Assembly: GCF_963676685.1 (NCBI RefSeq)
Contig: NC_092352.1
Span: 59,210,001-59,274,000, forward strand
Reading direction: 5' to 3'
DNA from: Mytilus edulis
Taxonomy: Eukaryota
Length of the DNA stretch: 64,000 bases
The notes below the pieces were generated by a model. That model was not told the DNA's origin. It saw only the letters and a program-made list of their open reading frames with translations, and did no database searches. Positions 6,788 to 55,000 of the stretch are shown one piece after another (the first letter of the stretch is position 1; the number at the start of each line of letters is the position of its first letter). Both the position numbers and the translations under genes were made by a program.

Positions 6788-8715
6788 GTGTTTTGGATGC
6801 ATATAGCGACTGTACATACTACTACAGTTACGGATATAATCAGGTCGGGAGTTCCTGTACTTACTATAGCAATAGTTATTACTACACGTACTATCGCCGT
6901 GTGTACTCAATGTAAGTATAATATAATTGGATAAACGACACTATCTATACAAAAATAAGTCTTTAATTCACTATTTTAGTATTAGGGTATACCCAGCCAA
7001 GTAGTCAGCACTTCGGTGTTGAAATGATTATCAAATATTTGGTCATTTTTATAAATTTACTGGTTGCAAAAGTATATTTTTTTCGAAATGCATGTACTGA
7101 GGATGTTCTTATCCCAGCATGGATTGCCTGAGCCGTATTTGGTACAACTTTTGGAATTTTGGATCGATAATGCTCTACAACTTTGTACTTAATTCCGCAA
7201 ATATAAACAAATCGTTTCCCTTCTTCAAAAATCCTTCAGTTCAGGTTCGGAATATAAAATTTACCACAACCAGAAGGATAGTTGCGTACACAGAATGAAT
7301 CTTTAATTATTGAAAATCCCACACATACCTGAAATTGGTAGAAGCATATAGACTCTCTTTCCTAAACCAAATCAGAAAAAAGAGAAATCTCTACGAATGT
7401 GCAGCTTAAAGCACATTCGTCTCAACTCGGCCGATTCCGTACCCTCAAGGAGAGTAGCGGATTCTACCGAGGATTGCCGAATGCTTAAAGCATAGACATG
7501 GTACTGCATGTACCTTTATTTTTTCGTATTTCACAAATAAAATGTTATTTGTATCTGGAGTGTCAACAAGATTCCAATGATCCAGTTGAAATTGGCCATT
7601 CAGGTTCGAACGCATATAAGTATAATATGCGTTATGATTAATCATACCCCTAAGCACCTACAATTACTAAATAATCATATAATTGTTGTATATGTTTTAT
7701 GGCAATCAATATGTGACACTTTAATAAACAAATTTATATATATTCATTGTAAAATGGTGAATTTATATATTTTTTCCAGATCAGCTCCAATTATTGTAGT
7801 AATAGCCCTTGGGGCCCTTGTTGGACTAGGCATATTCATTACAATACTGGTGTGTGTATGCTGCAGACGTGGTCGTCGGTCAACAGGCGTGGTTGTAAGC
7901 GGCAATATTGCCCAGCCAACGACAGGGTATATCTATCCAACCAATCCAAACGGTAAGTTATTTCATACATGTGTCCCTTTCCCCTATACATAGAAACGTA
8001 AAAGACTGTTATTATTTGATAGAATATAGATGAAGCAACAAAAAAGCAGAAAAAAATTAAAGGTTCCGTGTGCTTATTTTCGAGATGTAAGCCATTGAAA
8101 ACTTGGCGGAAATTAATTCTCTCTGAATTTCATCCTCTTTTCAAAAAAGATGAAAAAATAACAAGGATTTTATAAGATTTGCAAAAAGACACTTTAAAAT
8201 ATATGTAATGAAGTTATGAAACGAACGGGACAAGACTAAGTATCTTCACATGTCTTTCTAATTCTATAAGGATGCATCACTGAAGTAAACACGTTGGAAA
8301 AAAGGTCCCAGAACAGAAACTTCTCATAAAATACACATTATTTTACATAAGGTTTTATGTTCTTTTTAAAGTGAATTGGTCTATTTTCAACATCGATTGA
8401 ATTTGAATATTATAAAAACTTTTGAATATTATAAAAACCGAGTATCATTAAAACAGGAATAGTTATCTTATTCCTACGCATCACGTATATATATTTGTTT
8501 TTACATAAGCTGGTGCTGTGTCATATCCTGGAGGTAATCCCCCTGCTGCTGGGTACTACGGCGGAAATCCGGTTCCTACTGGATACAATGCTGGCAATGC
8601 TGCTCCTGTTGGATACTATGGCGGAAACGCTGCGCCTGCTGGGAACTATGGAGACAACCAGCCAATAAATACTGGACCGAAACCACCTCCATACGACAGT
8701 GCAGTTCCATCATGA
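6788..8715 (+). CDS. Gene A: CYYR1/Shisa-like single-pass membrane protein (Tyr-rich ectodomain, TM, Gly/Pro/Tyr tail with PPPY); first exon not located
   Basis: Exons 6788-6911 (VLDAYSDCTYYYSYGYNQVGSSCTYYSNSYYYTYYRRVYS), 7780-7952 (SAPIIVVIALGALVGLGIFITILVCVCCRRGRR...) and 8510-8715 (SYPGGNPPAAGYYGGN...KPPPYDSAVPS*) join in frame via GT-AG introns (phase 2, phase 1); AATAAA at 8762. Confidence 0.8.
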
Positions 8716-9739: not shown

Positions 9740-11738
9740 TCACAAGTTTTCATATGTATGATGTTCTATATAAGGAATTGTTTGATCATTTTCTATTTTA
9801 CCGAGGTGATCAGCTACGTCATACGTGTCATCAACTGAATGGTCGTACATATCGTCAGAGGTGGTACTCTTATGTCTGTTGAGATGCGCATGATCATAAA
9901 TGTCATCCACGGTTTCAATATACGGATCATCATCTTTGACTTCATCACATATTGGCGATGCTAGTTCATAATTATTTGCAGTAACTGTGGTTTGATTGCT
10001 TCTATCGTATCCAGTTTCTACCGGGTCAAGGGTAAAGTAAACAGCTGATGACACATGTGGTATATCGCTGTTGTTGATTTGTTCTTTGACTGTCCGGAAT
10101 GATCCGGTTTCAAGCTGATCTATCGTGAAATAACTAGACGATGGTACTTTATTTACTCCGCCATTTTTTATTTCTGAGAATGCAATATTTTGATGGCCAC
10201 AATATGTGTACGATTCAGATTTCACCATGCCATGTGTTGTATTATCTTTCTTTTGTTCAACTGTGGTGTGACAAGTAAAATATCTATAGAAAAATAAATG
10301 AAATAGCAGCTTTTACCATTCTTCAATATTCATCAATAAAATTAGCCTTATCCTTCCAACCTCAAACACACCAAAAGGGACGTTTTCGTTGATTTGACAA
10401 TGGTCAAGCCTCTGCCACACGATGGTACATAATAAACTTTGAATATAAAAAAGATGATGTGGTATGATTGTCAATTAGACCACTTTCCACAAGAGACCAA
10501 ATGAAATTAACAACTAGATGTCACCGTACGACCTTCAACAACGAGCAAAGTCAATACCGCATAGTCAGCTATGAAAGGCTTTAAAATGACAATGTAAAAA
10601 AAAAATCAAACGATAATACTAATGGCCTAATTTATATACAAACAATGAACGAAAAAAAAATATGTAACACAAGTTGGCGGGATCCAAACCCTCGTCCTAA
10701 TCTGTGACAGTGCTGTAACAGTACAACATAAGAACGAACTATAAAAAACAGTCGAAAAAGTCGAAAAAGTCATTCGATTGAAACAAATAAATAATACACA
10801 AAGTGGACGTAGCCGGGTAATTGTATATCCCAACAACAATAATACAATAAGTACAGATGTGAAAGTACTCGCAGTTACTGACAGCTAGTTCAAAGCCATT
10901 TTAAAACAACTAATAAAAAGTCATGCATCTAAGACTAGTAAGTTATCAATCAGAACCCATCCAACATCCAATGGAGTCTGCTTTCGCCTTCATGCATTAA
11001 ATGTTGACATACCAGGCCCTTTTATAGCTTAAGGGTAGTTGTATCACGGAAACATCTCTTCAGTGTTACAAATAGATAGACCAGGATAAAACTACATGTT
11101 GAGCATCTAAATCATGACGTCTGTTAACGCATTATTCAATAAATTGATAATGGAGGAGGAGGGAGCATACATTTGGAAATACGAGATGTATTTTGATTCA
11201 GTGCAACCACTTATCAAGATATGCTTACCCTTCCGAAGCATGTGAAAATTCCCTAAGTTTTCGGCTTGATTCGTGTTGCTCACTCTTTGGATTTCTATGT
11301 TGTGCTTTGTGTACTGTTGTTTATAGAAATTAGAATACGTGGCACGAGTGCAAATGAGACAAGTAAACTCTCCATCTAAGTCACAGTGTATAAAAAGTTA
11401 ACAATTATAGCCTTCAACACGGAGCCTTGGTTCTAACCGAACAACAAGCTATAAAGGACCCCAAAATTACTAGACTGAGTGTAAACAATTAAAACAAGTT
11501 TGTCTGATTGTCTGATTTATTTTTTAACTAGGTAATCATTTCATTTTTGATATACAAATGTATTGGTTTGAATGTAGCTTTGGTATTATTCACCTCTGTA
11601 TTATAACACACTTTCAAGCCTAAAAATTTACGTTGTGTTCAAAAAAATTATATCATAATTACCTTTTTGCTAAGAAAACAAACAGTGTAAAAGAAACTAT
11701 CCCTACTGCTCCACCAATTACACAGATTAGTAATATAA
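9740..11738 (-). CDS. Gene B: multi-tyrosine-tail receptor, TM exon and cytoplasmic exon (ectodomain unresolved)
   Basis: 76-nt TM exon 11738-11663 (ILLICVIGGAVGIVSFTLFVFLAKR) splices in phase 2 to terminal exon 10283-9740, which carries SSYFTIDQLETG, VYFTLDPVETGYDR, NYELASP, IYDHA, MYDHSVDDTYD and C-terminal TYENL. Confidence 0.75.
10446..10975 (+). repeat. Abundant interspersed repeat (AAGATGTGGTATGATTGCCAATGAGACAAC family)
   Basis: Homologous to 17620-18050 and to minus-strand copies at about 29430-29905 and 26680-26790. Confidence 0.7.
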
Positions 11739-12559
11739 CTGTTAAATATAAATGGTTTCATTCTATTATTGACAATTGCAAATCGGCATTTTATATTTTT
11801 ATCTAGATATATTTATAGTATTTGTTCAAGTGTCGACGTATTCTTATCCTTAGACAGAAAGTAAAACATATAAAAACAAGGGGAATACGTTATGTTGTGC
11901 ACGGGATGTAAACAAATGCAGACACGTCCAGCTGGTCTGCATCAAACGTCTTTTGAAGGAATATTACAACTGACTCTTCTCAGCTATAGGAACCATTGGG
12001 ATTTTTTAATTTCTGTACCTATGCAACATAACATAATTTTTTTCAAGTGATTGACGAAGTATCAGCCATTGTTTTCATTTTTTCATTTTATGTGTTGTTC
12101 TGATCAAAGTTGAAATGTTTATCTAGGAATGGAAAGAAAAAGACATTCGATTTCTCTTAATATGTACACTTTTCTCGGATCATATGTAAAAGAATTGAGA
12201 CAGTTTATAGTTTAATATATTGTATATCTATTATCGGAGACACGGATGCAGTTGGGATAATTTTTAAATAGCACCAAATTGTTTGACAAGTTGATTGATA
12301 TAAATAATTGTTATGCATTCAATGATCAAAAGTTTCGGGTTAATCCATTTTGAAAAGTGTTTTTATTATTGAGATATATGGCAAAAGAGGAAGCATATAT
12401 TGATAGTAATGTTTTTTTTTCGATCCAAGTGCATGCTTTTAATGCCTAGTGTACTTTTTCAAAGAACCCAGCTATTTGTGGTTGGTCTTCATTTGTTTCA
12501 TGACTTCATGCATGACTGTTTGAATTTATGAAATTGATGGAAAACTAAATGTTTCAGAG

Positions 12560-13340
12560 AGATAAAAAGTTCTGGCAGAATCAATTTGCGCCAACTGCAG
12601 TTTTCAAAAGGTATCAATTGCGCCACTATATATATTTCTGATGGTTTAATTGTGCCAATAAATAGAACCAAATTGCGCCACATTTACCTGTATATGTTTT
12701 TTTACCTATATCATACATGTTACCGTTAACCTATCCACTTTAGATTAAACTGAAATCATCAAAATTAAGAAAACTCACTAATGCATTATACTGTTCAGTA
12801 AAAGAATAGTTTTTTTCACACGGAAAGATGTCTGAAACATGTAAATCGTGTAAGACAATACAGTTCGATAACGGGAACCCTATCATCGTTATAGAAGATC
12901 AGAAATTCTGTGAGGCATTTAAGATCATTTAATTTTAAAGAAAAACGAAGTAATCTGATGGAGATCTAGGAAAAAACATTAAAACAAATTGAGAGAAGTG
13001 AGCAGATAGGAATATGTTTCTATTTTAAGTTTTTTGTTTTTGTTTAATGATGAACAGAGACATTTTATAGTTTTAACGGTATATATATGTGAGTGAGCAT
13101 TGGGATACAGCATATTTTTTTGAAGTCTGTTAACTGTCTGGAAAAAAGGAGGAGAGAAGTCAATCATTTAGTTGATATGCAAAAGTAAATATAAATAAGT
13201 TGATAAAATTGGCGCAGTTAGATGATTTTTCATTGACGCAATATATACCTATAGTTTTTAAAATGAAGTGGCGCAGAAGTAGTATTGGCGCAAATAAGTT
13301 GTGGCGCAAATAAGTTCTTTTTTGGCGCAAAAAGATATCG
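12560..13340. mobile_element. Probable non-autonomous transposon with oppositely oriented subterminal TTGCGCCA/TGGCGCAA motifs
   Basis: TTGCGCCA cluster at about 12585-12680 and TGGCGCA cluster at about 13210-13330; the same layout recurs at 25135-25850. Confidence 0.5.
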
Positions 13341-15106
13341 CCCAAAAGTTCGTATGAGCTTGTACTTACTATTGTTGTCAAGGCCAGCTGTTTCGTCAGC
13401 CAAGGCTGAAATTGTCGTGTTCCCTGCAAGACATGGGTATCGCATTGATTACATGTGTGTTCATGTTATAGTAGACGTAAATGATACGCTTACAAAATGT
13501 ATGGCTTGCATAAGTCATTAAAAATGGTATGTTCATGTTAAACTGTTTTACCTCAAATCCAAACGTTATAACAATCTTATTTCGAAGATGTGAACGCCTT
13601 TTGATCATACTTCTTAATATTAAAAGACTGTTAATCACGTGTTGTATTATACCGTAAAATATTAAACGGCGATTACAAAAAAGGTTACAGATAGTGAAAA
13701 ACAAATTTCATTACTTATTGGTAATTAATGTTCATTACACAAGTACCTCCTTTACAGGTTGTTGCTACAGACTCATTTGTCAAATAAAAGTTAGAATACG
13801 AATAATGTTTTCACAATAATCGCAATAGGTATATCGTTAAATACAGCAAATTGTACTTTTACATATGTACAAAGAGTGCACTTCTTTATAGAACTGAAAC
13901 GTACATGTTGCATACACACAATTAACGTGTAGATAACATGTAAAATCAATTTGTGAGAAACGAAAGAAATATATTCAAATATAACATTATATAACTTTAC
14001 GAAAATGGCGTACAAATCATTTGTAACTGTTTATAAGTATTTGATTTAATTAGATAAAACACAATATGGTGTCAGCTCCCTTTTTTACCACTAGTTTATC
14101 ATTTTCTCAAAGAGACGTCAACACGGCAAACATTACTTCCAAAATAGGTAGAAACAGAAGCTTCTACGTCGAAACTTTGGCGGCGAGAAAAAAATGGGAC
14201 TCAGCCCCCCCCCCTTTTTTTTGAAGTAACGAGGTTGCTCCTTTAAGAAATTCATTTTGGATGATTTGCAGTAGTTTAAATATGTCTCAATTACGCATTA
14301 AAAACGTAGGCTGCATCAGCGTGCTTACAGACGAAGAAAAAGATTTGCGATGTAAAGGATCACTACATTTCTATCTTTTCTGTTTGTTTCAAATGGTATT
14401 TTTTCTCCAAGGAGTATTTGGCAAAGGGAGGGGGTAATGTTTGTTTTATTTCTAATTGTATTTTAACGGATCTGAGATAATACACAAACAAACAATTAAC
14501 CTCACCCTTTTTCAGTAATGCATTTGTGAGTGAATCGTTGTTTAAGTAAAGACCAGTGGCAAATATTTCTGTCAGTGTGTACGTCCAGTCGATTCGAGAA
14601 GACCTTTTCAAATGAATTATATGTTCGGCAATGATGATGGATGAGTCTTGATAAGGGGTTAATATGGCTACGTAAAGTGTGTTTATAACAAATAAATATA
14701 TCCAAGTTTAGACAAATATTTCTGAAAAGAACTTATAAATTATTAATAAGTGTTCTAAGTATCAATTTTATATAAAAATCGTTTCTTTTTTAAATATACA
14801 ATGGAAAATTAAAGTTCTGAATGCCTAGTTTTGTGTACACTTATCGTACACAAGGCCTACATCGACTATCGACTGCATGTAGACAAAACATGATTTTAAC
14901 TACATGTAAACATTGAGTTTTATTAATGGGAACGTAATTATGTTTTGTTTATGTGTGTGTTATAATAACACAACACCGAGTTTAGGTCAATGTGAACACG
15001 GCCTATATAGACGCCCACTACATTGTACATTTGATAATTATAATAAAATAATTTAAACGTTACAACAAGTAAAATGTCACGACTAACAGTAGGTGTGGCA
15101 TTTATG

Positions 15107-15712
15107 TCAATGGGATCTTAATCAAAATACACTAAAAACCAATGAGACACCAAAAGGCGATGAGATCTAACCTAAAGACACTAAAAACAATGAGATTCCA
15201 TCAAAAGACACTACAAACCAATGAGATCCCACCAAAAGACACTAAAAAACAATGAGATTTGACTAAAAGACACAATAAACCAATGAGATCCAACCTAAAG
15301 ACGCTACAAACCAATGAGATACAACCAAAAGACACTCAAATCAATGAGATTTCACCAAAAGACACTAAAAACTAAAGATATCCCACCAAAAGACACTAAA
15401 AACTAAAGATATCCCACCAAAAGACACTCAAACCAATGAGATTCAACCTAGAAACCAAAAAAAGCAATGAGATCTAACCTAAAGACACCAAAACCAATTA
15501 GATCCCACCAAAAGAAACTTAAAACCCATGAGATCCCACCAAAAGACACCACAGACCAATGAGATCCCATCTAAAGACACTACAAACCAATGAGATCCTG
15601 CCTTAAACACCAAAAACCAATAAGATCCCACCAAAAGACACCAATAACCATAGAGATCAAATCTAATTTATAAAAGACACTATAAAGTGAGGGATTCCAT
15701 CAAAAACACACT
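15107..15712 (+). repeat. Degenerate ~30-31 bp minisatellite (CCAATGAGATCCCACCAAAAGACACTAAAAA), roughly 19 units
   Basis: Periodic CAATGAGAT...AAAGACAC visible throughout. Confidence 0.85.
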
Positions 15713-16303
15713 AAAGCTTCCCACTTTCTTCGAAGCGAAGAGATCCATTCTAAAAATTCAAACGAAATCCGGAAAAAAGTTGTAATTGGCATTTGAGTTT
15801 TAAGTACCACGACTCTAAAATAAAGATAACATTTAGGTCAATATGCATGATCGATTGTCGTTAGTTAGCACGTGTTTTTAAACAAGACTATTTGTTTTTT
15901 CTACCTAATACCACATATTATTCAGAATCTTACTTGCATACTTACAGTTTGAAGACATGTTTAACTTAATACATTCACCAATATATGATTTTCCTAAGAA
16001 CATATACAGAAAACCAGACGAATATAACACTATTGTATAAGATGCCATGAGAAACCTACATGTATGTGTGTTATCTAAAATGACATGTGCATGTAGTTAA
16101 CTTTTATTATATTTATCAAATTAAATAAAAATGCATTAACTTTATTACCATTATTAAATACATTACTTGTAATCACATCATGTCTGAGTAAACAAAGAAC
16201 GCTTGTAATTTTATTGAACTTTCCATAAACAGTGTCGTAAAATTTTCTGTCGTTTGACCAATTATTTGGATAATTTAAAAACTTCCTTTTCAGTATTGAA
16301 TTA

Positions 16304-19093: not shown

Positions 19094-22000
19094 CTATACA
19101 TTTATTTTCTTTTGAAATAAGTCATAATCATCTGATGTCCGTTTTTCTCTACATAATTCATAATTAGCGTGATCTGCTTTTCTTGGTCCGCCATATTGCT
19201 GAGGTGTTACATAGTACACATCTTCAGAATGGCTATACAGATTGTTTTCACTTTTTGCACATTTGTTATAACTTTCACCAGCAATATTGTAGGTGTCTGC
19301 ATTACACGCACTATCACTGTTCGATACACAATTAGGGGCCTCTTTTTCACTGTCGGCTGGTTTTGCAAGTTCATACTGTTGTGGTTCATATGACGTAGTG
19401 TTTGAAATCGGTTTTGCAAGTTCGTAATTTGTCGCGTTTAAATCTTTGGTTTCACAAAAATCGTCACTTTTATATTTATTTTTAGTTGACACTTTTAAAA
19501 TTTTTGACCGATCGGACCCATCATCGGTTGAAGACAAATCGATATAATCTCCGATTTTCATTTCTTTCTTACTAATCGGAGTTTGTTTTACATGAACACG
19601 TGCATTATTCCCAAGGTCAGTAGGACGGTTATTATAGGGAGGTAACTTCGGAGGTTCCAACGAATCGTACACCGTCATATAACTATGTGGTTGATCAAAA
19701 CGAACTTGTGAGAATTCATCATACTGATGATTTCTCCCTTCGCTATAAATTCCTAGAGTGTCGTATTCTTCATTTTCGCCATTGGTTACGGTTGTCAATT
19801 GAGAATCAGTTGAGGTTACATTCCTATGTCCATTATTATTATAATGTTGATCGTATTTTCGTTTATTAAAACATGAAAATCTGTAAAAAAAATATGTAAG
19901 AAATAAAACATGGATTTTCGAAACGAGTTATGAAGTCTCGTATCAAAATCGTAGACTTAAAATGTATCAGCAGATGTTTTACATTGTCAACTACGGCTAC
20001 GGTGCTATCTACAGTACATCAAGAAAACAAACCACTTCCCCATTGCAACGATTGTAAGCTTGAGTTTACTTGTTTTACGTTGTTCTTACTTGTCAGAGTA
20101 CCAAAGTTCTTACACAGAGTACATAACCTGTTGAAAATTATATATTCCGGAATCTAAAATCGGTATCATAAAAAAGCATACATAGTCAGTACTCAGCTAT
20201 TTTTTTTTTTTTTTGGTTATTAGTCAGAGTAAAGGGTACTGATTTCAATTAAGTTTTTGATTTTTTTTTAGTACTCAGCTATTCGCAAGAAGTTACAAAA
20301 TTTCCCTCAGATTTTGTTTTTTTAACTACAGTAGTTCAAAACTAAGGTCAGGGTAAGAATTTTCGATTAGTGTAATATTCGCATGCTTACCTTCTCAGGA
20401 TGACAACACATAATATCAATACCAATAACAGAAATATCAGCCCTCCAACCACGCCTCCAAGAATACCTATAACATGATAACAAAGTTTAATTTAGAACTT
20501 GAACTAATGAATTCCACTTTAGTGTACATTTTTAGATATTGATACATTTACATGTTTTGGGAGATTTTTTATCAGCACTGATGCATGCGCAGTGACACAT
20601 ATTACACTGCATATCTGGATTCTTGACCCGTAAACCACGGCGACATCATGACTAAAGCCATCCCCTCCCACCATCCATTTGTGTTTGTAGAACTTAAACA
20701 TGTCTCCTTATTTTTCAGTGGTAAATTGAAACGTTGCTAAATTCTACATCACTCTGGTGACAATAGTTGTCTCATTGGCAATCATACATGTACCATACTT
20801 TCCATTAAAACACACTCTGTCTACCATTATGTCCATTTCTTTGTTGATTGCTTTTCATTGAAACTGGTTTTTTTTTAATAAACTTCCTAATAATTGTATG
20901 GTTATATCTAGATCATTATATAAAACTTACTAGTGACGATTGGTTGATTTGCAGTACAATCTTACTAGGTCAACAACGTTTCACCTTATATATATATATA
21001 AGCTATCGAGAATTCCCCTATTATTCTATATCAAACCGATGTCAAAAACTAACTTAGTTGAGGTCTGATTTTGATGATATTTTTAATGTTAAACTAATGT
21101 AGAATTATTTTTTTTTTAAAAGTGTTTTTTATGAAATAATAGGAGAATTTTTCAAAAGTGAAACACTGTGACTGTTGACTCAAGACTGTTCATGTACTGT
21201 AACATAAAGACTGTACATGTACTGTAACATAAAGACTGTACATGTACTGTAACATAAAGACTGTACATGTTCTGTAACATAAAGACTGTACATGTAATGT
21301 AACATAAAGACTGTACATGTACTGTAACATAACATAATAAATTAATCATTACATACCAGCTGTTAGAATTTTATCCACTTGAGAAGTTCTGTTTCCATTT
21401 GTACTATTGGTTGGGTATGTAGGTGTTGCTGGAAATGAACATTTATTTTTATTTATTTCAGTTTCAACATTTTGAGTGTACAATTTGCATAATTATATGA
21501 GATTCTGAAATTGGATCCTTCATTTCCTTACTCTTGAACTTGTTAGACCATTTTTGGCTGTTCTTAACTTATTGTTACGAAAAGCACTGTTCTCTATTCT
21601 TTATGTTTTGATGTTATTATTCTTCAGTCTTCAATTTTTATCCTTTATTTCCACACTTTTCACCCCAAGTCTCTTTTCTGTAAACCCTATTCAGATACTT
21701 GGGTATGGAAAATACAAAGGGTACATGTAGCTTTGGTACCAAAAAAATCATGAATAATTCTGGTAACGTTACTCTTTTTTTTTTTCAGAAACGAGTAATA
21801 TTCTGTATCACCTTGTTATATGGCAATTTTCAACCATTGTTTTGAAAGTTTAAAGTCTTACAATGAAATCCTCAATTTGTAATGCGAAACCAGAGACAAG
21901 TAAATTTTGCCATAAATGACCTACATGTATATTATATATATCGTCGAAAGTTTTATCTTTGTTAAAAAAACAAATGACACTACAATAACTATTTTTTGCT

Positions 22001-25000
22001 AGGAAAGGGCTGCTTTTACATCTTTTCTAAATTCAAGTGGGTGAATTGCTGGTCTGACACCATTGTCCTATATTTAGCCCCGTGATGTAATTACCAAAAA
22101 AATAAAACAAACAATGCACTTATTCCGATAAACAAGGATTTTTTAAAAGGTTATCTTTACTGATAACTTTTTAAAACAATCATGTTGAAATGAATTTATG
22201 CGTGTTGTATAACAGAATGCACTTGGCGTTATAGATCTTTAAAGATTTGTAAGTGCATACCGACTACACAAGAGGGTCTGGAAAAGGGGGGGGGTGTCCT
22301 TCAGTTCCGTATTCTGTATTTTTGTTTTTGCCATTTTCTCTACATGTTTTAGACCCTCTGTCATTAGTCTCTATTCTTTTGTTATTTCCCCCCCCCCCCC
22401 CCCTTTCTGTAGTTTTTGAACCTAGTATGTATTTTACTTGTAGATTCGTCTATTATTCGGAGCACCCTTCGAGAGCTGGGAGGGTACAGTGGAATCCATG
22501 TACATTTCCTTTTGGGATTAATGAAGACGTGTCACTAAGTTTAGGTATTTACAACAATATGTAAAAGGCCAATCCCCACCCCCGAGTGCTAGGACATCGA
22601 TAAGTATGTTATATGGGGGAGGAAGTCTATTTATTTTACGAAAGCCACATCCAGACCCTCATATATACATGTATTAACAATAAATAGTGACCACTTGACA
22701 CAAGTACACGCAATAAGGTTGTAAATAAAACAAAAGGAAATAGACACGGGTCATAAATATGTCAAGTATGATATCGCCCTCATACATGTAATCGACCGTT
22801 CTGAATATTTCTTAAGTTTATAGGATATATAAAAAAATAATTGTTGACATGCTTACTTATAAAGTTCATATGGACGTTCATATCATTCAACTTTTTGTTT
22901 ATTATAATTTCTTTTTATTTAGAATGCGCCACACAACACTTGTTACACAGTAATATAAATAATCTTTTAGAAAACAAAATAACCAATATACTAATTTCGC
23001 ATTGTTTTTAAGCATATCTGAATGTCACAGTTCTGAATCTATTTTTCACTGTTTCGGTACAGGTACTCTGAGGGAACCATTACAAAGCAAGGCAAAATGT
23101 TTACCTCCTTAAAAAAAAAAAATTACAAAAAAGAAAAATACCACATTCTGTGTTATTTTCAATTCAAATTGAATTCGTCATCATGGTCATGACTAACAGC
23201 AATATTTGCCACCTTAAGTTCAAACAACAAGGAATAAATTAAGCAATTAAACAAAGCATTATACTTTAGAAAATATAAATTGGTGAGGTATAACGTCATC
23301 GACTCTAACAGTTGTGGTCGCAATAATTATGTTCTTGACTAATAAAAAAATCGACATACCATATTTGTCTTTATCTGTAGTCTCTCTGGTTGCTCTGGTA
23401 CTCGTTTGTATCCTACCTAAGTGATAAATCAAAAATACATAAAAAAAAAATGTTTAGCATTATACCTCAATTTCATATCGACTATAAACTGACACTGAGA
23501 AAAAAATGAATCTTATTGAAAAAAAACCAACCACCATGATGATTATAGTAAATGAAAAAGTATCTTCAAATTCGTTTTTCTATCACCAATTGATATCTAA
23601 AGCAAACACACTTCTGTATGGTGTTGTTTGATGTTCTTAAACATAAAGTAAGTACTATTACTAAATCTCTTTTATTTTGCCGGTACATTTTAATTGCTAC
23701 GTCTTTAATACAACCATAATGTCAGTACAAACTATTGACCAGTCTTAAATCACAAAACCGAAGATGGAATGTCAAATGATTTTTTCTCCTTTTTCTCCAC
23801 TTTGGTTTATAGCTCTTCGTCCTTTTTATAAGCTATGGTTTTCAAGAATTTTGGCATCGAGCATCACTGACGAGAAATTGATTATCGAAATTTGCATCTA
23901 GTGCTGAAAAATTGGTATAGTTTGTTATTATTATGAAGGTGACATATTTACCTTGTGTGGTTTTTGAAAAATATCCTGGAAACCGTGTAGATCTTTTATT
24001 TGCATTGCTTGTGCTAGTTATCTTGACAGTTGTAGTAGAGAAGTCGTCATCTATGTCTAAAGATAATAAAAATATTACTGGGGGATCAAACAAATGTCAA
24101 GGTTAGCAAACATCAAAGATTTCTACATTTCTTTTTATTCAAAGCAACCAAGTCTCAGTAATCGACAAATGGCTAACAGGCAATATTTAGTCCAGAGAAA
24201 CTACATATAGGTATAAATAAAGGCAATATTAGTATTCAGTCATAAATCTATTTAACTTAAACAAATCCGGGTCACAACCAAAACTGAGAGAAACCCTTCA
24301 ACTCTAAGGGAGAAAAACCAGAACAACAGAAACACTGAACTGCTACAAAACAAACGCCAACATATACAAAGAAACGGACTATGTGATAACAACTGCCATA
24401 TTCATGACTTGGTCAATGAATAAAATGTGGGTTGAACCTGGTTTTATGGCTAGCCAAAACTCCCACTTATAATGCAATGTTAAAAATACCGCTAAATTAA
24501 AGTAATAACATTACGCAACAGGAATATACATGTTACAGTAGTACAAATCAATGCAAGAACACTCAGGACAGATAAAAGCATATATAAATGATAAAGTTCA
24601 TTTCAAAATGTAAACCACAGAATAAAGCGAACTCGATGTTCAGAAAGCTTAAATAGTTTTTACTTCGCTTGAACTCATTCTGTAAATATGTTGTGAACGT
24701 AAAGACAAGATAGTATACGGATAATTTTGTAACAACAACTTGGGAGACATTAAAAGGACATGTACTGCCACGGTCTTATCATGAATATACCATCAACCAA
24801 CAATACAAGTACAATGTTGGCTTCTAAAAAATATTTCAAATGAAATGTAAGTGGATTGAATTTCAATAGACTCTGAATATGATTTGTTAGAGTTTGCATG
24901 GACGGAATATCAACACGACTAAAAAAAAAAACAACATAAAAGACACAAAAGGACAAACAACAGTTCACAAAACAAAGCAAAGAAAAGTGATGTGCAAGGT

Positions 25001-27183
25001 ACATGTATTTCCAAAAGAAATTCGTGTACGGGGAAAATGTGACACGATAGAAAAGATTTTGAACAATTGGAAGGGGGCACAATTATCGTCCTTTTGTTTT
25101 AGAGGACCTAGTAGGTTAAGGTTTAGATTAAGGGAGAAATTTGTTTGCGCCAAAATTGCGTCCTTTTGCGCCCAAATTTGTTTCTCCAATGCTAGTAAGT
25201 TTGCGCCACCTGTTTTAAAATTACACTGTATCATTTGCGCCAAAATTAAAACATACAATTGCGCCATTTTAACGTAAAAATACTTCTCTCCTACTTTATC
25301 CGGGCAGTTTACACGGAAAATGTTTCATCTACTGAAACATGTCAACTTCTTACTGCTGATACACAATTTAATGTACAATGTACAATGTATGTAGTAGCTT
25401 GTACAATGTAGCTTCACTATATTGTCCAACAATACAAACATTGAAGGATAGGATGCATAACAGTTTATTGAAATTCTTGTAGAACGCCTCTGCCCCACAT
25501 ATGTACGTCTTGTGGTAGATGGGGTTTCAGCTCATACGGATGGTGGGAACAAAACACTGTCATCAACATATATATGGCTTAAAAATAATCAGTAAAATCG
25601 TTATTTGTTTTCTCTTTTGGGCTTTCTTGTGCATTTTAAGAAATTCTCCTTTTGAAATATCCCCGCACGTGTGATACTTTATAAGCCAAAAACAAGAAAA
25701 ATACATAATAATCCATAATATGAATGATAAATATGTGTAAATTGGCGCAAATGAGTTCTGAATATTGGTGCAATTGATACATTTGCAAAAACAAAAATGG
25801 CGCCAATGATACTCCTGAAAAAAGTAATTGGCGCAAAAGGACTCCTACCTAGATTAAGCAATTATCGCCTGTTATGTGATATTTTACTCGAGGACATTAA
25901 TCGGATTTAACAATGTAAGAATGGACAAGAACAATAATACTTCTCATTTGTTTAATAGGATCCTAGACATAATTAAGTGATTATAGCTTTAAAAGAGACA
26001 TATAAATTAACACTTATATTGTTTGTCTGGTTAATCCTTTAATGTAAAATATCGCCGTGATGATTGCCCCTAAAATTAGAAATTCAAATTTAAACGCAAT
26101 CAATTTGGCATATTCAAAACAAAATCAAGGGTCTTGTGTTTACAGTAGTGGTAATAACGTTCGCTATAAACAACATGTACATTAAAATGTACAAGTCACA
26201 TACGACGAACTTTTTAAAAGGGGTTATCATATACATCTGGTGAAATATTTAGAGAATAACCAAGAAAAATAAAAATGACAGTCACTCTTAAAGTAACTCT
26301 TGAATACTAGTCGTCTATGAACCTGATTTGATTTACTACATGTAGTACCTTTGATAAAGCAGACTTTAAACTCTGCACTGCATTTGTCAGACACCCATAT
26401 TGATCTCGTATTAAATCCATAATTTTCATTTTCTGTACACTTATTTTTCTTTTTCTCTTCTACTATTTCAATGGAGACAATCTTCCCATCTTCTGGTATA
26501 TCTTCAACCACACACGTGACAGGACGTTTATCTCTCTTCGGGTTGCATTCTTCATATTTACATTGTTGTGCTAAAGGGTTTAAAAGCAATACAGTACATA
26601 AGTGCATTGTGTACTGATACACATTATACAAAATAAAAAGTCATGCTTTGATGTCTCTGGTAAACAGTCTTTGCATAACTGACTATGCGGTATTGGCTTT
26701 GCTCATTGTTTAAGGCCGCCTGGTGACCTACAGTTTTAAATTTCTGTGTCATTTTAGTATCTTGTGGAGAGTTGTCTCATTGGAAATTATACCGCATCTT
26801 CTTTTTCTTGTTCTTTGTGTATATTTCAATTTTTATAGTATAGTGTATGCATCAATTTCTATAATTAAAATTTTCAAGATATAATTTGGTTGAAAAATAT
26901 ATTATCATAAAGATAAGAAAATGTGGTACAAATGTATGATTGCCAGTGAGACAACTATCTACCAGGGACCCGCATATATATTTTTAAAAGTGCAATCATT
27001 CGGCATATTTTCATACTATTTATATATAATTACAAATATGTACTTTAATCTTGAAATGTATTACTACGTTGTAGCTATACCTAGTAGTAATTAATTTCCT
27101 TTCGAATATTTAAAACTGCAAGACTTACCGCCATCACAATAGATTAAAACACAAATGCCTACGAAAATCCGAAATATCTCCAT
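19094..27183 (-). CDS. Gene C: type I receptor with signal peptide, ADEL/DUF3011-like lectin domain, Ser/Thr stalk, TM and multi-tyrosine tail (457 aa as modelled)
   Basis: Seven in-frame GT-AG exons: 27183-27129 (MEIFRIFVGICVLIYCDG); 26570-26349 (QQCKYEECNP...KCTENENYGFNTRSIWVSDKCSAEFKVCFIK); stalk exons 24056-23952, 23416-23360, 21428-21357; TM 20466-20391 (ILGGVVGGLIFLLLVLILCVVILRR); tail 19880-19094. Total 1374 nt, no internal stop. Confidence 0.8.
21184..21331 (+). repeat. 25-bp tandem repeat (GACTGTACATGTACTGTAACATAAA), about 6 units, in a gene C intron
   Basis: 25-bp period seen directly. Confidence 0.9.
25135..25850. mobile_element. Probable non-autonomous transposon with oppositely oriented TTGCGCC/TGGCGC motifs, in a gene C intron
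   Basis: Five TTGCGCC motifs at 25144-25266 and TGGCGC motifs at 25743-25836. Confidence 0.5.
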
Positions 27184-37061: not shown

Positions 37062-40000
37062 TGTCAATTTGTTTAAGCAACGCCACGTGGCTCCTTAGTT
37101 TCTAGCGATAATTTTCCATCTCAAGCGAGTAGCATGATATGAAAAATTATCACAAAAAAGATCGAAGGAAAAATACACAAAATAGCGATAAATTAAGATT
37201 CTCACGAATCTCACGTGAGGATTTCCCCATGAATATAACGTGAATTTAATAAAAAGAAAATTATATTTTTCATGCTTTTATTGTAATTTGTTTTATTTTA
37301 AAAGTCCATGTGACTTTCCCATGAACAAAAGTTAGTTTTACATGCAATTCGCGTGATTGATTGATATTTATCTTGTAAAACAATTTCATTTCGACGATTA
37401 ATTTCCTTGTTTTTTTATAGCAATAAAATGAATATATTTTTATCAGAAAACTATGAAATTAGTGTTGTCTCTCAATTAACAAATCAAAAACAAACATTTT
37501 AACTCACTTCTATTGTTTCAGATCTCCACTGCGTTGCATGCACATAATTTCAATAATAAGACAGGTGAACTATGAATATGGTATTACGAAGTTGATTTTG
37601 AAAAAAATATCCGTTGCAGTTTCCTTATAAACATGTAAATTAACATCAACCTTATTTTCATCATGAATTTTTAAAGTAAAGTCACTTCCGATACGTAAAA
37701 AAACACAAACAAAAATAGTTTTCTAATTAATGTTATCGTACTTTTATTGTTAATCAAACTATATACTAATAAACAAGAACATTAACTAAACTTTTTAAAT
37801 AAGAAAACGATAAGTAAATAACGGTGTAACTGAAAGTGTTCAATTTAACATACTGCAAATCATTATATACTATTTAAATGGCAAAGTATACCATTTTTCT
37901 TACAGATCCCGCATATGAGTGGAGCATACGTGACACACAGGGGGAAAGTATATAAAAGTGCAAAACATGTCTGTATGCAGCCGACAGTGTCAGATACTCG
38001 TCTACTAAACATATTATGGACAACTAAAAAATGCTCTTCAACGTGTGTACTTCATTTAGTGTTTTTACTTTTATTCGAGAGTCGCTGATTATTCGTATGT
38101 AGACGACCCACGTCTGACGTACAAACGTATGAGCCTGATATCTTAATGAGCTTTTATTTCACTTAACTGTGAATTTATTTATTTTCGTGGGTACCAATTT
38201 TCGTGGATTAAGGAAAGCTAGCATGTTCGTCGATACGTAATTGTATGGTTTTACCGAACTCTGTATACAAGCCTATAAGAAATTTTGTCATTTGTTAAAC
38301 ATTTGATTTCGTGGTCAACCTGTACACACGAAATCTACAAAAGTTTATATCCAACGAATAACTATGTATCCGCAATATGAGATAAGACACACATAAAGTA
38401 ATTCAAACGAGAAATCTAACATACAGCAACAAAATAACTATCCATGAAAAACAGGCCCCAGACTTGGGACAGGCAGATACAGAATATAAAAGGGTAAAAA
38501 ATGTTTGAAAGCGCCAACCATCTAATGACATGGGACAGAGGTATAACAGCACAACATAAGAACTTATTATATAAAAACCAGTTTTAAAGGGCTTAACTCA
38601 TCAGATCGATACCAAACAAAAAACACATCTAGCAAAAGTACAGAAATTTCATGTCAATTTCATTAGCAACGCCACGTGGTTCTTAGTTTCTAGCGATAAT
38701 TTTCCATCTCAAGCGAGTAGCATGATATGAAAAATTATCACAAAAAAGATAAAAGGAAAAATACACAAAATAGCGAAAAATTAAGATTCTCACGAATCTC
38801 ACGTGAGGATTTCCCCATGAATATAACGTGAACTTAATAAAAAGAAAATTATATTTTTCATGCTTTTATTGTAATTTGTTTTATTTTAAAAGTCCATGTG
38901 ACTTTCCCATGAAAAAAATATTAGTTTTACATGCAATTCACGTGAAGGATTGACATTTATCTTGTAAAACAATTTTATTTCGACGATTAATTTCCTTGTT
39001 TTTTACAGCAATAAAATGAATATATTGTTATCAGAAAACTATGAAATAAGTGTTGTCTCTCAATTAACAAATCAAAAACAAACATTTTAACTCACTTCTA
39101 TTGTTTAAGATCTCCACTGCGTTGCATGCACATAATTTCAATAATAATACAGGTGAACTATGAATATGGTATTACGAAGTTAATTTTGAAAAAAATATCC
39201 GTTGCAGTTTCCTTATAAACATGTAATTTAACATCAATCTTATTTTCATCATGAATTTTTAAAGTAAAGTCACTTCCTATACGTAAAAAAACACAAACAA
39301 AAAGAGTTTTCTAATTAATGTTATCGTACTTTTATTGTTAATCAAACTATATACTAATAAACAAGAACATTAACTAAACTTTTTAAATAAGAAAACGATA
39401 AGTAAATAACGGTGTAACTGAAAGTGTTCAATTTAACATTCTGCAAATCATTATATACTATTTAAATAGCAAAGTATACCATTTTTCTTACATATCCCGC
39501 ATATGAGTGGAGCATACGTGGGGAAAGTATATAAAAGTGCAAAACATGTCTGTACGCAGCCGACAGTGTCAGATACTCGTCTACTAAACATATTATGGAA
39601 AACTAAAAAAAGCTCTTCAACGTGTGTACTTCATTTAGTGTTTTTACTTTTATTCGAGAGTCGCTGAGTATTCGTATGTAGACGACCCGCGTCTGACGTA
39701 CAAACGTATGAGCCTGATATCTTAATGAGCTTTTATTTCACTTAACTGTGAATTTATCTATTTTCGTGGGTACCAATTTTCGTGGATTAAGGTAAACTAG
39801 CATGTTCGTCGATACGTAATTCTATGGTTTTACCGAAGTCTGTATACAAGCCTATAAGAAATTTTGTCATTTGTTAAACATTTAATTTCGTGGTCAATCT
39901 GTACCCACGAAATCTACAAAAGTTTATATCCAGCGAATAATTATGTATCCGCAATATGAGACACACATAAAGTAATTCAAACGAGAAATCTAACATACAG

Positions 40001-40221
40001 CAACAAAATAACTATCCATGAAAAACAGGCCCCAGACTTGGGACAGGCAGATACGGAATATAAAAGGGTCAAAAATGTTTGAAAGTGCCAACCATCTAAT
40101 GACATGGGACAGAGGTATAACAGCACAACATAAGAACTTATTATTATATAAAAACCAGTTTAAAAGGGCTTAACTCATCAGATCGATACCAAACAAAAAA
40201 CACATCTAGCAAAAGTACAGA
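37062..40221. repeat. ~1.58-kb tandem duplication covering the upstream exon and promoter of gene D
   Basis: 37062-38644 aligns with 38652-40221, with scattered substitutions and small indels. Confidence 0.9.
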
Positions 40222-40409
40222 TCGAACCTGACGGAAAATCTATTTTGATACAATCCCTCACAACTACAAAAACACAACGTTCTGATCTGATAGTATTGGC
40301 AGTTGTCTGAGATAGAAACTGTACACATTATCAAACGTTCTTCTTCCGTTCCGCAGTACTCCATTCGACAAACGAACGCAACAATTGAATATAGACTCGT
40401 AACAAGATC

Positions 40410-51612: not shown

Positions 51613-52088
51613 TTAATAGTGCACTAAATTCGGATCCATCGATGGTGGCATTGCCTCTTCTGTTGATTTGTTTGTATTTTCACTCCATGACAAATGATTG
51701 GTAGGAATATCTCTCGATTGATGGATATATTCAACTGAATTTCGATTGTTCGATAACGAATTATAAGTGTTGCAATTGCAGTTGCTTTCTTCCTGTTGAA
51801 TAGAAGAGGACATGTTTGGTAGTTGACATTGAGTTGTGTTACATGTACTTGTGGGTCTGCTTTTATTTATCCCAGGGATAAAAATATCCGTCATTTCATT
51901 GTAAATTATATCAGTATAACTAGGTAAATCATTCCTATCTGTTATATTTTGATATTGTAGAATCTCACAAGGAGGCAAATCTTTGCCTCGCTTTCGTTTG
52001 AGGCAAACAACTAGGATGACAACAAAAGCAACAAACAATAATAGGACCAACACAGGCAAGAAAATTATTGTATATACTGAGGAATCAG
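51613..52088 (-). CDS. Intact TM-plus-cytoplasmic exon with an ITAM-like motif
   Basis: Acceptor TTTTTTTTGTAG; reads DSSVYTIIFLPVLVLLLFVAFVVILVVCLKRKRG... then YQNI-x8-YTDI, YNEM, YNSL; open to TAA at 51613. Confidence 0.65.
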
Positions 52089-55000
52089 CTACAAAAAAAA
52101 TATATTTACATAAAACAGAAACAAAAACTGCATGCCATAAATATTCATATATATGGCTAAATACAATTCATAATTATATGTTTTTGTATTCTAAAGCTGA
52201 ATAACCGAAAACAAAATGTCGTGTGTTTCAAATCAAAGACATTCATATTAGTATTTCCTGCTAAGTTCGTGTCATGAAGGAGAATAAAAGGAGAATGTCT
52301 TCTAGGTCTGTGTTGACATGAATTATCATTGTTATTGTCATAATTATAAATAAGCTATATACAACACGTTGCATTGTTTAATTACTAAGGCGTTTCTACC
52401 TCCGAAATAGATTCCCTTTGCAGTATTTGGCGAAACTGTTGGAAATGTTTGGTCCACTATGCTCGTTAACTTCCTACTTCATTTGTCCTTTTTAAAACTT
52501 TTTTGATTTTAGTGTTACTAATGAGTCTTTTGTAAAGGAAAAATGCGTCTTGCAAATGTAAAACTTCAGTCCTGATATCCATGATGAGTTTATTTACTGC
52601 GTTAAAAATTCTTGCATTGGACAAAGAAACCGTTACATTTGAGTTTTTAAGTATAAAACGTTTGTTTTTGATTACGTCATTTTTGTTGGTTCATTAAATT
52701 TAGTAAGAAAAAGTCTGAAAATTACGTTATTGGAGACAATTAAAACATATTAATACATATATATATGTTGATCTGGTAATAAATCGAAAGTAAACAAAAT
52801 CAATTACAATCGTGACCGGTGATATACATGTTACATTACTTCTCGCATTACGTTAATATGTTTATAGGTTATACGTTTATAACGCTTATTTGTAACTAAT
52901 AAGGGCAACAGTAGTATACCGCTGTTCGAAAGTCAGCAATTGATTGAAAGAAAAAAAAAACGGGTTACAAACTTAAACCAAGGAAAACCTATAAGAGGTA
53001 AACAACGAAAAAAGTGCAATAAAAAAACCGACAATGTAACACATCCAGAAACGTACTATAACAACTGCATATTCCTGACCTGGTACAAATACACGGTTTA
53101 CCTTTAACAGATTATCTTGTTTCGGAGTTGTTAGGGTATGGTTTGACGTCGATGACTGATGAGCTTGAAGTAAAAAGTATATTATGGTGAGTAAATAAAT
53201 GAAAATATAATGCAGTATTTACTTTCCTTAAATATATTAACGTAATGATTTAAGAGTCAAAATGAGAACCATTTAACGGCACAAGAAACAAACAATACAA
53301 AGCAATAAATTAAAATAACGTATGTGATATGAATTATTGGGATATGTATTGTATTCACAATCAGCCTTTCATTTTTCTTAAATATTTGTAACATATTTTT
53401 AAGAACCCAAACTGATTGTTGTGGTTTCCCTTCGATTGATAAAATATTTGCAACGCGGGGGATATTGTAACATGTTTATTGTTTTTGTGTCTGTCTGTTT
53501 ACGGCATTGGTTGTTTTAAGGAACCAAAAGGACGCAAACAGTACCACACATACACAAATGACGATGGACAAGACGTGGTGTTATCACAATTTTGCATTAT
53601 TTGAACAATACAGACTTTGACGTGTTAAACAAGCTCTAATATCTTTAAATGGACATTTTGTGAAGCAACACATGTACTCAACATATCTGTATATTTTATA
53701 AAGAGAGGCTCTCCATGTTTTACCGCATTTCATTGTAACATGACCTTTGAATAATATGTTGCAATCTTTTTCTCTTTTTCTTTTATACTGTTTGGAACCT
53801 AGTTGTCTCCAATGACCATAAAAAACATTCGTTTCCGTACTTTAATTAAACGTAAATAAAACAAAATGAACTGACTTACAATAAATGAAGATTAAGGTAA
53901 AGTAACAGTAAATGAACGCCGTCTAGCGGATTCCGCGAAATATTGCGACGTTTTGTACGAATTACGTCCCTTTGACCAGATTTTGCAAAGTAAAAATTGC
54001 ACCCGGCGACTTTTCGATGTGACAATGTCAACGGTTTTGACGGAAAGTATGTAACTTCTATGAGAATGAACTTGTTTTTCTAAAATTAAAAATTGAAAAT
54101 GATATGAAAACAGTCCTGAAGAGGATCTTCAAAATGAAAATCAGGACGTAGGGTGGTAGAGTTTGTATATCTGCCGACCAGTTAAACATGTTAAAACAAG
54201 TGTGAAAACTGTTGCTCACTACTATTTCTACATAATTGTGATGAGAAAAAACAGTGTGGTCTCGGAAGTATTCTATATGTTGTATGTCAAAACTGTCCTT
54301 TCAAAAACCCTATATTCACTGGGAAAAGACATCGTCTAGCAGCAAATAAGCAGAAGGGGTGCAAGTTTGGGACATTAATACAAAAGATTCAAAAACTTAG
54401 TATTGTACGGTAAGACTATTTCTCCCATATTTTGAAAATTATCACACCAGTCGGAACAAGGAAAAATATTTTCAAATTAGAGAAAAGGAAATGAACCACA
54501 TAAACTAATACTGGTCATAAATTCGCCGCTGCTGCCAGTCAGTCATAGATGGCACTAAACTATAATACACTTAAATTAATTAACCTTGTTCACGGCTGGA
54601 ACAATAGTTTAATATTCATACACAGTTTTTAGACTATAACAAATTAAAAATAAACAAAAATGATCTTTCACGATCATTAATCCATCGCTACATTTTGTAT
54701 TCTAACGTTGCTGTTTTTTTTTTTGTAATGGTGTTTTCTTTCACGTCCGCAATTTCGATGTTAAAAGTAGAACACAAATCTTTAAATAGATACATGTATA
54801 AATAGTATATGGTTTGAAGATTTATACATGGCTTAGTTTCCTAATAGTATTGATTCGTATGGTTGTCTTCTCAAAGGAATTGTTATATATATATATGGGT
54901 AAAAAATCTACCGAATCAAAAAAAATGTACCCTAGCTGAAAGTAGCATCTCAAATATAAGATAGAACTGTTGTCAATTCTATTTCACTCATAAAACTTGA

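Follow-up and report, generated by a model that had tools for sequence, protein, structure and literature searches.

Does a lectin domain known from soluble proteins serve as the ectodomain of a signalling receptor in the mussel Mytilus edulis? The question is raised by a gene within a 64,000-nucleotide stretch of contig NC_092352.1 (positions 59,210,001 to 59,274,000, here called the window), for which a preliminary description had proposed such an arrangement. The gene encodes a protein that crosses the membrane once and combines one DUF3011 domain, a Ser/Thr stalk and a Tyr-rich tail, and we give an even chance to its acting as a phosphotyrosine receptor that is clustered by its ligand.

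Gene structure and transcripts

Seven exons with AG/GT ends and intron phases of 1, 1, 1, 1, 1 and 2 form one fully open frame, in agreement with the open reading frame claimed earlier (Table 1). The single predicted product of 457 residues is identical at 457 of 457 positions to the public M. edulis model P0005, which is annotated as uncharacterised. The signal peptide was called by eye from a hydrophobic core and small residues at -3/-1.

Table 1. Exons of the DUF3011 gene and features of its neighbours, in window coordinates
Feature	Position	Strand	Description
Exon 1	27183-27129	-	55 nt; predicted signal peptide of 18 codons plus 1 nt; phase 1; spliced to exon 2 in five runs
Exon 2	26570-26349	-	222 nt; one DUF3011/ADEL-type domain with six Cys; phase 1-1; three family-conserved positions degenerate
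Exon 3	24056-23952	-	105 nt; Ser/Thr stalk
Exon 4	23416-23360	-	57 nt; Ser/Thr stalk; missing in M. trossulus isoform P0003
Exon 5	21428-21357	-	72 nt; stalk with 2 N-glycosylation sequons; missing in isoform P0012
Exon 6	20466-20391	-	76 nt, phase 1-2; transmembrane (TM) helix, hydropathy 3.45; basic residues next
Exon 7	19880-19094	-	787 nt; cytoplasmic tail of 261 aa, 21 of them Tyr; stop codon
Tandem Tyr motif YM(T/S)VYD	19681-19658	-	common to 6/6 aligned DUF3011 receptors
Neighbour B	13423-9743	-	short stalk exon, 76-nt TM exon (11738-11663), Tyr tail; folded ectodomain not found
Neighbour D	36615-35259	-	two-exon WSC (36615-36467, 35415-35259); TM exon 32135-32060, 76 nt
Neighbour E	48156-46869	-	two-exon WSC (48156-48002, 47025-46869); TM exon 43526-43451, 76 nt

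Splicing was examined in eight of 24 listed runs, as Logan contigs or raw reads, and no listed run is recorded as RNA. Contigs from five of the eight (X1, X3, X6, X7 and X10) join all six introns, and those of X3, X7 and X10 include single contigs spanning exon 1 to the tail. X4 contigs contain five joints and miss that between exons 1 and 2; these six runs represent six separate studies. In X21 and X22, where about 6% of each was read as raw reads, no joints were found and the exons were barely covered. As the contigs join all six introns, in three runs as single contigs, the domain exon is part of a membrane-bound transcript. A separate secreted transcript stopping before the TM exon, which had been named as one of two cases that would overturn the proposal, is ruled out by the single contigs, and none of the ortholog isoforms examined by sequence stops before the TM exon. 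The fused M. coruscus models P0004/P0014 hinted that gene B might supply an alternative 3' end, which was also rejected: the joint is absent among the leading ones listed for four runs, with 17 lesser joints outside that listing, and model P0018 supplies gene B with its own start.

Orthologs are present in M. galloprovincialis, M. trossulus, M. californianus and M. coruscus, with an open frame and 81-88% identity among Mytilus species. The same layout is found in P0229, a distant full-length relative with 31% identity, and in a paralog on contig C9 at 37.23 Mb, 22 Mb away, while a further copy, at C9:37.25 Mb, has decayed into a pseudogene. This pseudogenised copy, together with the degenerate domain and degenerate family motif of the tail described below, would suit a mucin-like glycoprotein with a structural part at the cell surface, or a family member in decay that has neither specific ligand nor signal; with an open frame conserved to this extent, a full-length relative and splicing in six studies, we regard this as very improbable.

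The DUF3011 domain

Exon 2 matches exactly the pattern previously read from it, C-x5-YG-x5-IWV-x3-CSAEF-x2-C with six Cys in a 222-nt phase 1-1 exon, and contains the DUF3011 core C...[YFW]G...W..xC.[AG].F. With its flanks it scores 28.6 bits against the Pfam profile PF11218 (E 1.6e-6, cut-off 25), which bears out the similarity to DUF3011 and ADEL stated in the preliminary description; the score was 25.5 in the genome search and, for the whole protein, 24.3, slightly below the cut-off. By BLAST, the domain matches all three repeats of Aplysia ADEL, at best with 33% identity over 42 residues (E 3e-10). Weaker ADEL matches on C6 and C561 (E 0.058) were discarded as noise, as C6 was not recovered on checking and C561 had the same score.

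The AF2 model of the domain (pLDDT 93) is a small beta-sandwich with the strand order of the ADEL repeats. The structural comparison suggested earlier yielded a confident model, but Foldseek returned no match to it at E<=0.001, and a search of PDB sequences gave a single chance match (E 1.1) and no solved relative. Weak matches (Z 4.8-5.8) to H-type lectins and to glycan-binding tips of phages are among the best for the fold. The values for Helix pomatia agglutinin (Z 4.8, rmsd 3.0, 67 aligned residues) and for the ADEL model against PCSK9 (E 6.6e-4, TM 0.33) are typical of common arrangements, and the small six-stranded beta-sandwich shared with H-type lectins (Helix pomatia agglutinin, discoidin) and with the resistin/PCSK9 C-terminal modules implies neither homology nor function. 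In the ESM Atlas, the whole protein was uninformative (best 0.76); searched alone, the domain matched clusters of DUF3011 proteins (0.78-0.81), which we treat as no more than a lead.

The domain lacks Ser39, Gly61 and Arg63 of the family (profile numbering), having K at the first position and K-C-S for G-C-R. Among repeats, conservation reaches 88-89% for Ser39, 91-97% for Gly61 and, in bacterial-type repeats, 77% for Arg63, and all three residues are missing in only 2 of 645 other repeats, a redundant set. The triple loss recurs in each of the six Mytilus sequences checked, alleles and orthologs; P0229 and the paralog retain the Arg after the Cys, and the paralog has the G-C-R motif intact. 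No second DUF3011 exon was found across 114 kb around the gene, leaving a single domain only. Because three family-conserved residues are missing, glycan binding by this copy may be changed or lost.

The protein could then act as a phosphotyrosine receptor, or in adhesion, with a domain that has ceased to bind sugar and recognises a protein of self, microbial or matrix origin instead, an alternative we hold to be unlikely but worth weighing. Besides the loss shared by all six sequences, it would account for the higher variation of the domain among alleles (7 of 73 positions against 9 of 286 in TM helix and tail; Fisher p 0.026, three alleles only) and for the long branch leading to this lineage in a domain tree of 69 columns, in which the receptor-type domains form one group (87/88). 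In the literature found, moreover, lectin activity is demonstrated only for the Aplysia members. On the other hand, the PDB search gave no solved relative by which the missing residues could be placed at the sugar site, the Arg after the Cys persists in P0229 and the paralog, and the weak fold matches include glycan-binding proteins.

The cytoplasmic tail

Tails of the family to which the gene probably belongs comprise 180-355 residues with 13-21 Tyr and repeated motif blocks, and are enriched in YxxPhi (paralog p 0.001, gene F p<0.001). The tail encoded by the window gene contains YxxL motifs and six YxxPhi against 3.2 expected, which is not significant (p 0.07). Scored against a profile of the neighbouring family tails, it is equalled by 19 of 300 shuffles, again not significant, and by 211 of 300 with a profile of D and E only, while the tails of P0229 and the paralog outscore 300 of 300 shuffles with a profile of non-DUF3011 tails. 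Half of the Tyr are conserved relative to P0229 (8/16; other residues 53/180), whereas among Mytilus species they are no better conserved than the remainder (17/21 vs 182/235). The tandem motif YM(T/S)VYD is one that we take to be ITSM/ITIM-like. Of the Tyr-signalling scaffold ascribed to the gene, the TM exon and the 21-Tyr tail are indeed spliced to the domain, but neither motif enrichment nor profile score reaches significance, and it is from motifs only that we infer a putative signalling role.

YxxPhi is an AP-2 motif as well, and its enrichment in the family tails suits either use. The protein might therefore be an endocytic or scavenger-type receptor in which these motifs act as clathrin-adaptor sorting signals for ligand uptake rather than signalling. 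We consider this improbable, as long tails with so many Tyr in repeated blocks far exceed sorting needs and neighbour B retains such a tail without a folded ectodomain, consistent with an adaptor role.

A probable receptor family on C9 and the origin of the domain exon

In the position of the DUF3011 exon, D and E were said to carry a two-exon WSC module, and such pairs were found (149+157 and 155+157 nt, phase 1-0-1), those of E by Pfam (E 4e-8 and 1.4e-6) and those of D by likeness. Within the family, the set compared here, a 76-nt phase 1-2 TM exon recurs in B, C, D and E as well as in the paralog at C9:37.23 Mb. The tail motif Y-x-x-L-D-P-x-x-T-G-[FY] occurs at 27 sites, all on C9, and at none in the control; the exons upstream of it are of WSC, MAM, SUEL-like or DUF3011 type, the ectodomains of the other family genes being assigned by position, not from transcripts. 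The motif is degenerate in the window gene and clear in its ortholog P0229 and the paralog (0/300 shuffles), so that the gene's own tail is tied to the family only via its ortholog. The gene fits the C9 layout of a phase 1 signal exon, a phase 1-1 module, a stalk, a TM exon of about 76 nt and a single tail exon, and it probably belongs to an undescribed receptor family restricted to this contig. The decayed copy at C9:37.25 Mb has a SUEL exon 1.2 kb on its upstream side, which resembled a recent swap; with no clean phase 1-1 or follow-on exon and a broken copy, it is at most suggestive.

Four mosaic genes for extracellular proteins in the mussel genome also carry DUF3011 as a mobile phase 1-1 exon: P0193/P0195 on C10, P0190 on C13 and a VWD/EGF-type gene on C8. 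The earlier idea that a soluble lectin was shuffled onto a Tyr-signalling scaffold stands with regard to the module swap, which is supported by the TM exon and tail motif shared across ectodomains. The soluble donor, in contrast, is not established, because DUF3011 already exists as a phase 1-1 exon in mosaic genes and the tree leaves the donor ambiguous. A word-indexed search with the receptor alignment recovered 12 proteins, 10 from Mytilus and 2 others. Among 2834 matches at E<=0.001 in a representative search, the best 150 are mostly multi-repeat proteins; a hydrophobic stretch beyond residue 45 occurs in two of these 150, of which one, P0080, has a type I layout.

We propose a single shuffling event in a mytilid ancestor, which placed the domain exon on a receptor scaffold whose other copies on C9 would bear WSC, MAM or SUEL-like modules. 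The receptor would be clustered by a multivalent ligand outside the cell, most likely a glycan of microbes, mucus or cells, and its specificity would probably have shifted from galacturonic acid. Src-type kinases would then phosphorylate tyrosines in YxxL and YxN motifs, at which SH2 proteins would bind the tail, with the conserved YM(T/S)VYD as the presumed main site. More tentatively, and with less than even confidence, we suggest a mussel family on one chromosome that combines a shared phosphotyrosine chassis with swapped phase 1-1 recognition exons (WSC, MAM, SUEL, DUF3011 or none), in which the window gene would represent the DUF3011 type and be the first signalling receptor to use an ADEL lectin module, reading glycans via a re-tuned site.

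Relation to known proteins and significance

The closest characterised relatives are AKL and ADEL of Aplysia, which share the homologous repeat, the predicted strand order and a signal peptide; they are secreted dimers of three tandem repeats and bind galacturonic acid, as reported for the DUF3011 protein AKL (PMC5484111). The mussel protein departs from this plan: its only repeat is degenerate and is followed by a stalk, a TM helix and a Tyr tail. Its overall plan is that of the oyster receptors CgCLec-HTM and CgCLec-TM1, bivalve lectin domains with a TM helix and a Tyr-motif tail, which have a C-type CRD, a hemITAM and demonstrated Syk/ERK signalling via tail tyrosines and Syk (PMC13027682). 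They are the model on which the proposed signalling of the mussel protein is based. The mussel protein differs in its unrelated domain, with no Pfam match to a C-type lectin domain, its 21 Tyr and its putative signalling. The Mytilus mosaic proteins contain the same single phase 1-1 exon module, amid TSP1, EGF, CBM14 and sushi-type domains and with no Tyr tail seen; in P0190 and P0193 the conserved motif is intact, unlike in the window copy. The Logan protein P0080 (2xDUF3011-EGF-2xDUF3011-TM-short Tyr tail) is likewise membrane-anchored with tail tyrosines, but its four intact repeats, unrelated 71-residue tail and separate branch indicate that its anchoring probably arose independently.

The layout of lectin-like domain, membrane anchor and Tyr-rich tail seen here was absent from the literature searched. 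Receptors of the lectin-TM-tyrosine tail class are already known in oysters and vertebrates, and the principle is not new. In the literature found, DUF3011 proteins are either lectins secreted by Aplysia or bacterial proteins that are uncharacterised, and a membrane receptor form would take the family beyond soluble agglutinins to a sensor on the cell surface. The protein likely senses something outside the cell; the paralog with its intact G-C-R and the degenerate window copy form a natural pair for mapping the sugar site, and the short conserved tail motif offers a bait for a downstream SH2 partner. The C9 family is a testable case of receptor diversification via exon shuffling in a filter feeder.

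Gene C is a spliced and conserved gene

Gene C, for which a preliminary description had proposed a DUF3011/ADEL-like lectin domain as the ectodomain of a signalling receptor, is a real, spliced and conserved gene. The proposed model proved exact to the single base. Its seven exons have canonical splice ends and intron phases of 1,1,1,1,1,2, and they join into a single open frame of 457 aa, encoding in order a signal peptide (judged by eye), a 73-aa domain with six Cys, a 79-aa stalk (34% Ser/Thr), a TM helix and a tail of 261 aa that contains 21 Tyr. The public, uncharacterised Mytilus edulis model P0005 has the identical protein sequence.

Splicing was assessed in 8 of the 24 listed sequencing runs. 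All six introns are skipped at the predicted GT-AG ends in contigs of X1, X3, X6, X7 and X10, and five of the six in those of X4, the six runs belonging to six separate studies. Because the introns are skipped exactly, these contigs probably derive from spliced RNA, the run type itself being a guess. Single contigs from X3 (1598 nt), X7 (1487 nt) and X10 (1628 nt) span exon 1 to exon 7; the domain exon is thus not on a separate secreted transcript, and the proposed architecture is borne out by these contigs and the open frame. Two raw-read RNA runs, with ~6% of reads sampled, gave no gene C joints and near-zero exon cover.

Orthologs are present in M. galloprovincialis, edulis, trossulus, californianus and coruscus. 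The Logan protein P0229 has the complete layout at 31% identity, and its best match, for domain and tail alike, is the gene C locus. A paralog with the same layout, found in four species, lies at G000:C9:37.23 Mb. A decayed copy of its stalk, TM and tail exons was also observed; 1.2 kb upstream of it, a SUEL lectin exon of canonical type (58 bits) stands in place of the DUF3011 exon, possibly through a recent module swap that is not provable.

Gene C exons and other features in the window and in genome G000
Feature	Position	Strand	Remark
Gene C exon 1	27183-27129	-	canonical splice ends
Gene C exon 2 (DUF3011 domain)	26570-26349	-	canonical splice ends
Gene C exon 3	24056-23952	-	canonical splice ends
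Gene C exon 4	23416-23360	-	canonical splice ends
Gene C exon 5	21428-21357	-	canonical splice ends
Gene C exon 6	20466-20391	-	canonical splice ends
Gene C exon 7	19880-19094	-	canonical splice ends
Domain loops	26398-26411; 26524-26539		allelic differences concentrated here
Gene B	9743-16074	-	apparent signal peptide, ~30-residue stalk, TM, Tyr tail; no folded ectodomain
Shisa/CYYR1-like gene fragment	7541-8665	+	small, single-pass, opposite strand; Pfam CYYR1 E 0.093
Tandem duplication	37100-40250		~1.6 kb, upstream of gene D WSC exon; by eye
TM and 126-aa Tyr tail	51616-52167	-	one frame; by score unrelated to C9 family tails
WSC-like exon	~59678		upstream of the preceding frame
Paralog tail stop	G000:C9:37235913		321 aa vs 358-387 aa in other records; LDP motifs lost
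Decayed paralog copy	G000:C9:37250472-37253966	+	stalk, TM and tail exons
Terminal DUF3011 exon	G000:C14:41733225-41733437	-	ends in stop
Long frames	G000:C6:19654201-19684200		similar to a Polinton-like or transposon element

The ectodomain is a divergent DUF3011 module

Exon 2 matches the DUF3011 profile with 28.6 bits (cut-off 25; whole protein 24.3 bits) and aligns to all three Aplysia californica ADEL repeats, at best with 33% identity over 42 aa. Its AlphaFold2 model (pLDDT 93) has six strands in the order of the ADEL repeats. Sequence searches returned no related solved structure, and fold searches gave at most weak matches to small beta-sandwiches, including phage depolymerase tips (Z 5.4-5.8) and an H-type lectin (Z 4.8); the ADEL model matched the PCSK9 C-terminal domain with E 6.6e-4 and TM 0.33.

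The domain was compared with 653 other DUF3011 repeats, a redundant set that we sorted into 511 bacterial-type and 142 animal-type. The Ser preceding the central Cys is kept in 88-89%, the Gly of the G-C-R motif in 91-97%, and its Arg in 77% of bacterial-type and all three ADEL repeats. Gene C has Lys, Lys and Ser at these positions, a combined loss that recurs in 2 of the 645 repeats in which all three positions are covered and is common to all six Mytilus alleles and orthologs checked, while the paralog retains G-C-R and P0229 the Arg. A domain that binds a non-sugar ligand is a minority reading that we consider somewhat doubtful. A structural or decaying gene is very improbable, given the conserved, spliced frame. 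Across three alleles, 7 of 73 domain positions vary vs 9 of 286 in TM and tail; the window allele has Pro at P29, where the other alleles compared have the family-conserved Ser.

Four further DUF3011 exons lie in mosaic extracellular genes: one on C10 and two on C13 among TSP1, EGF, CBM14 and sushi-type exons (the second C13 gene by eye), and one on C8 among EGF/VWD-type exons (by eye). Phase 1-1 was checked for those of C10, C8 and the first C13 gene. The C14 terminal exon may be part of an ADEL-like protein that is secreted and has a single domain; genome searches, whose hit counts are lower bounds, gave no three-repeat ADEL. Protein P0080, whose four DUF3011 repeats are combined with EGF, a TM segment and a short Tyr tail, was probably anchored in the membrane independently. 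In a tree of 58 rows and 69 columns, with 'bacterial' labels assigned by us, the five receptor domains group together (87/88, not starred) and a long branch leads to gene C's lineage. The DUF3011 domain and the architecture proposed in the preliminary description stand; the soluble-lectin donor is unproven, as the tree singles out none.

A probable receptor family on a single contig

Genes B, C, D and E and the paralog share a 76-nt phase 1-2 TM exon; D and E, the first exon of D not being found, each carry a WSC module split over two exons, its outer ends in phase 1. The tail motif Y-x-hydrophobic-L-D-P-x-[EA]-T-G-[FY] occurs at 27 sites, every one on C9 (control matches 0), which we grouped into 16 tail loci at G000:C9 36.77-83.95 Mb with at most four copies per tail. 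Upstream of the 12 loci examined, modules assigned by position rather than transcripts are WSC (4), MAM (4), DUF3011 (1) and SUEL-like (1; E 6.7e-4, below cut-off), with none assigned in two. These receptors are probably a previously undescribed family on a single contig; the literature searched held no relevant description.

Scored against a profile built from the tails of B, D, E, F and G, the P0229 tail and two paralog tails outscore 300 of 300 shuffles, while 3 of 300 score as high as the M. californianus ortholog and 19 of 300 as high as gene C. Pairwise with B, D, E and F, the gene C tail reaches z ~3 (2-3 of 200 shuffles as high). Because its own tail scores weakly and those of P0229 and the paralog strongly, gene C's membership is transitive, via the ortholog. 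Gene B, a candidate transmembrane adaptor, resembles P0018 of the M. coruscus cluster in layout, and its tail has a near copy at C9:51.017 Mb.

YM(T/S)VYD is kept in all six aligned DUF3011 receptors. The tails of the paralog, F and G are enriched in YxxPhi (p<=0.002), and the enrichment in the gene C tail is not significant (p 0.07). An endocytic role for gene C is quite unlikely in our estimate. The Src, SH2, ITSM and AP-2 labels applied to this tail are putative and follow established knowledge.

Implications for receptor function

The accessible parts of PMC5484111, PMC8878817, PMC13027682, PMC8306185, PMC7772429 and PMC5549309 describe no membrane form of the DUF3011/ADEL family; the ADEL primary paper, other subscription papers and supplements lie outside this scope and may bear on novelty. 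PMC13027682 classes the family as secretory, and a table in PMC7772429 has a row 'Lectin ADEL' for mussel gill, whose gene is not identifiable. The gene C layout was not found in the literature searched, while receptors of the lectin-TM-tyrosine-tail kind are already known; oyster CgCLec-HTM/TM1 with Syk (PMC13027682) is a precedent in kind for signalling. Sugar binding and signalling by gene C are unproven. We give an even chance to gene C being a type I surface receptor that acts by ligand clustering: the single DUF3011 module would be raised above the membrane on a glycosylated stalk, binding of a multivalent ligand, for which a glycan is the likeliest candidate, would cluster the receptor, and clustering would lead to tail phosphorylation and SH2 docking.
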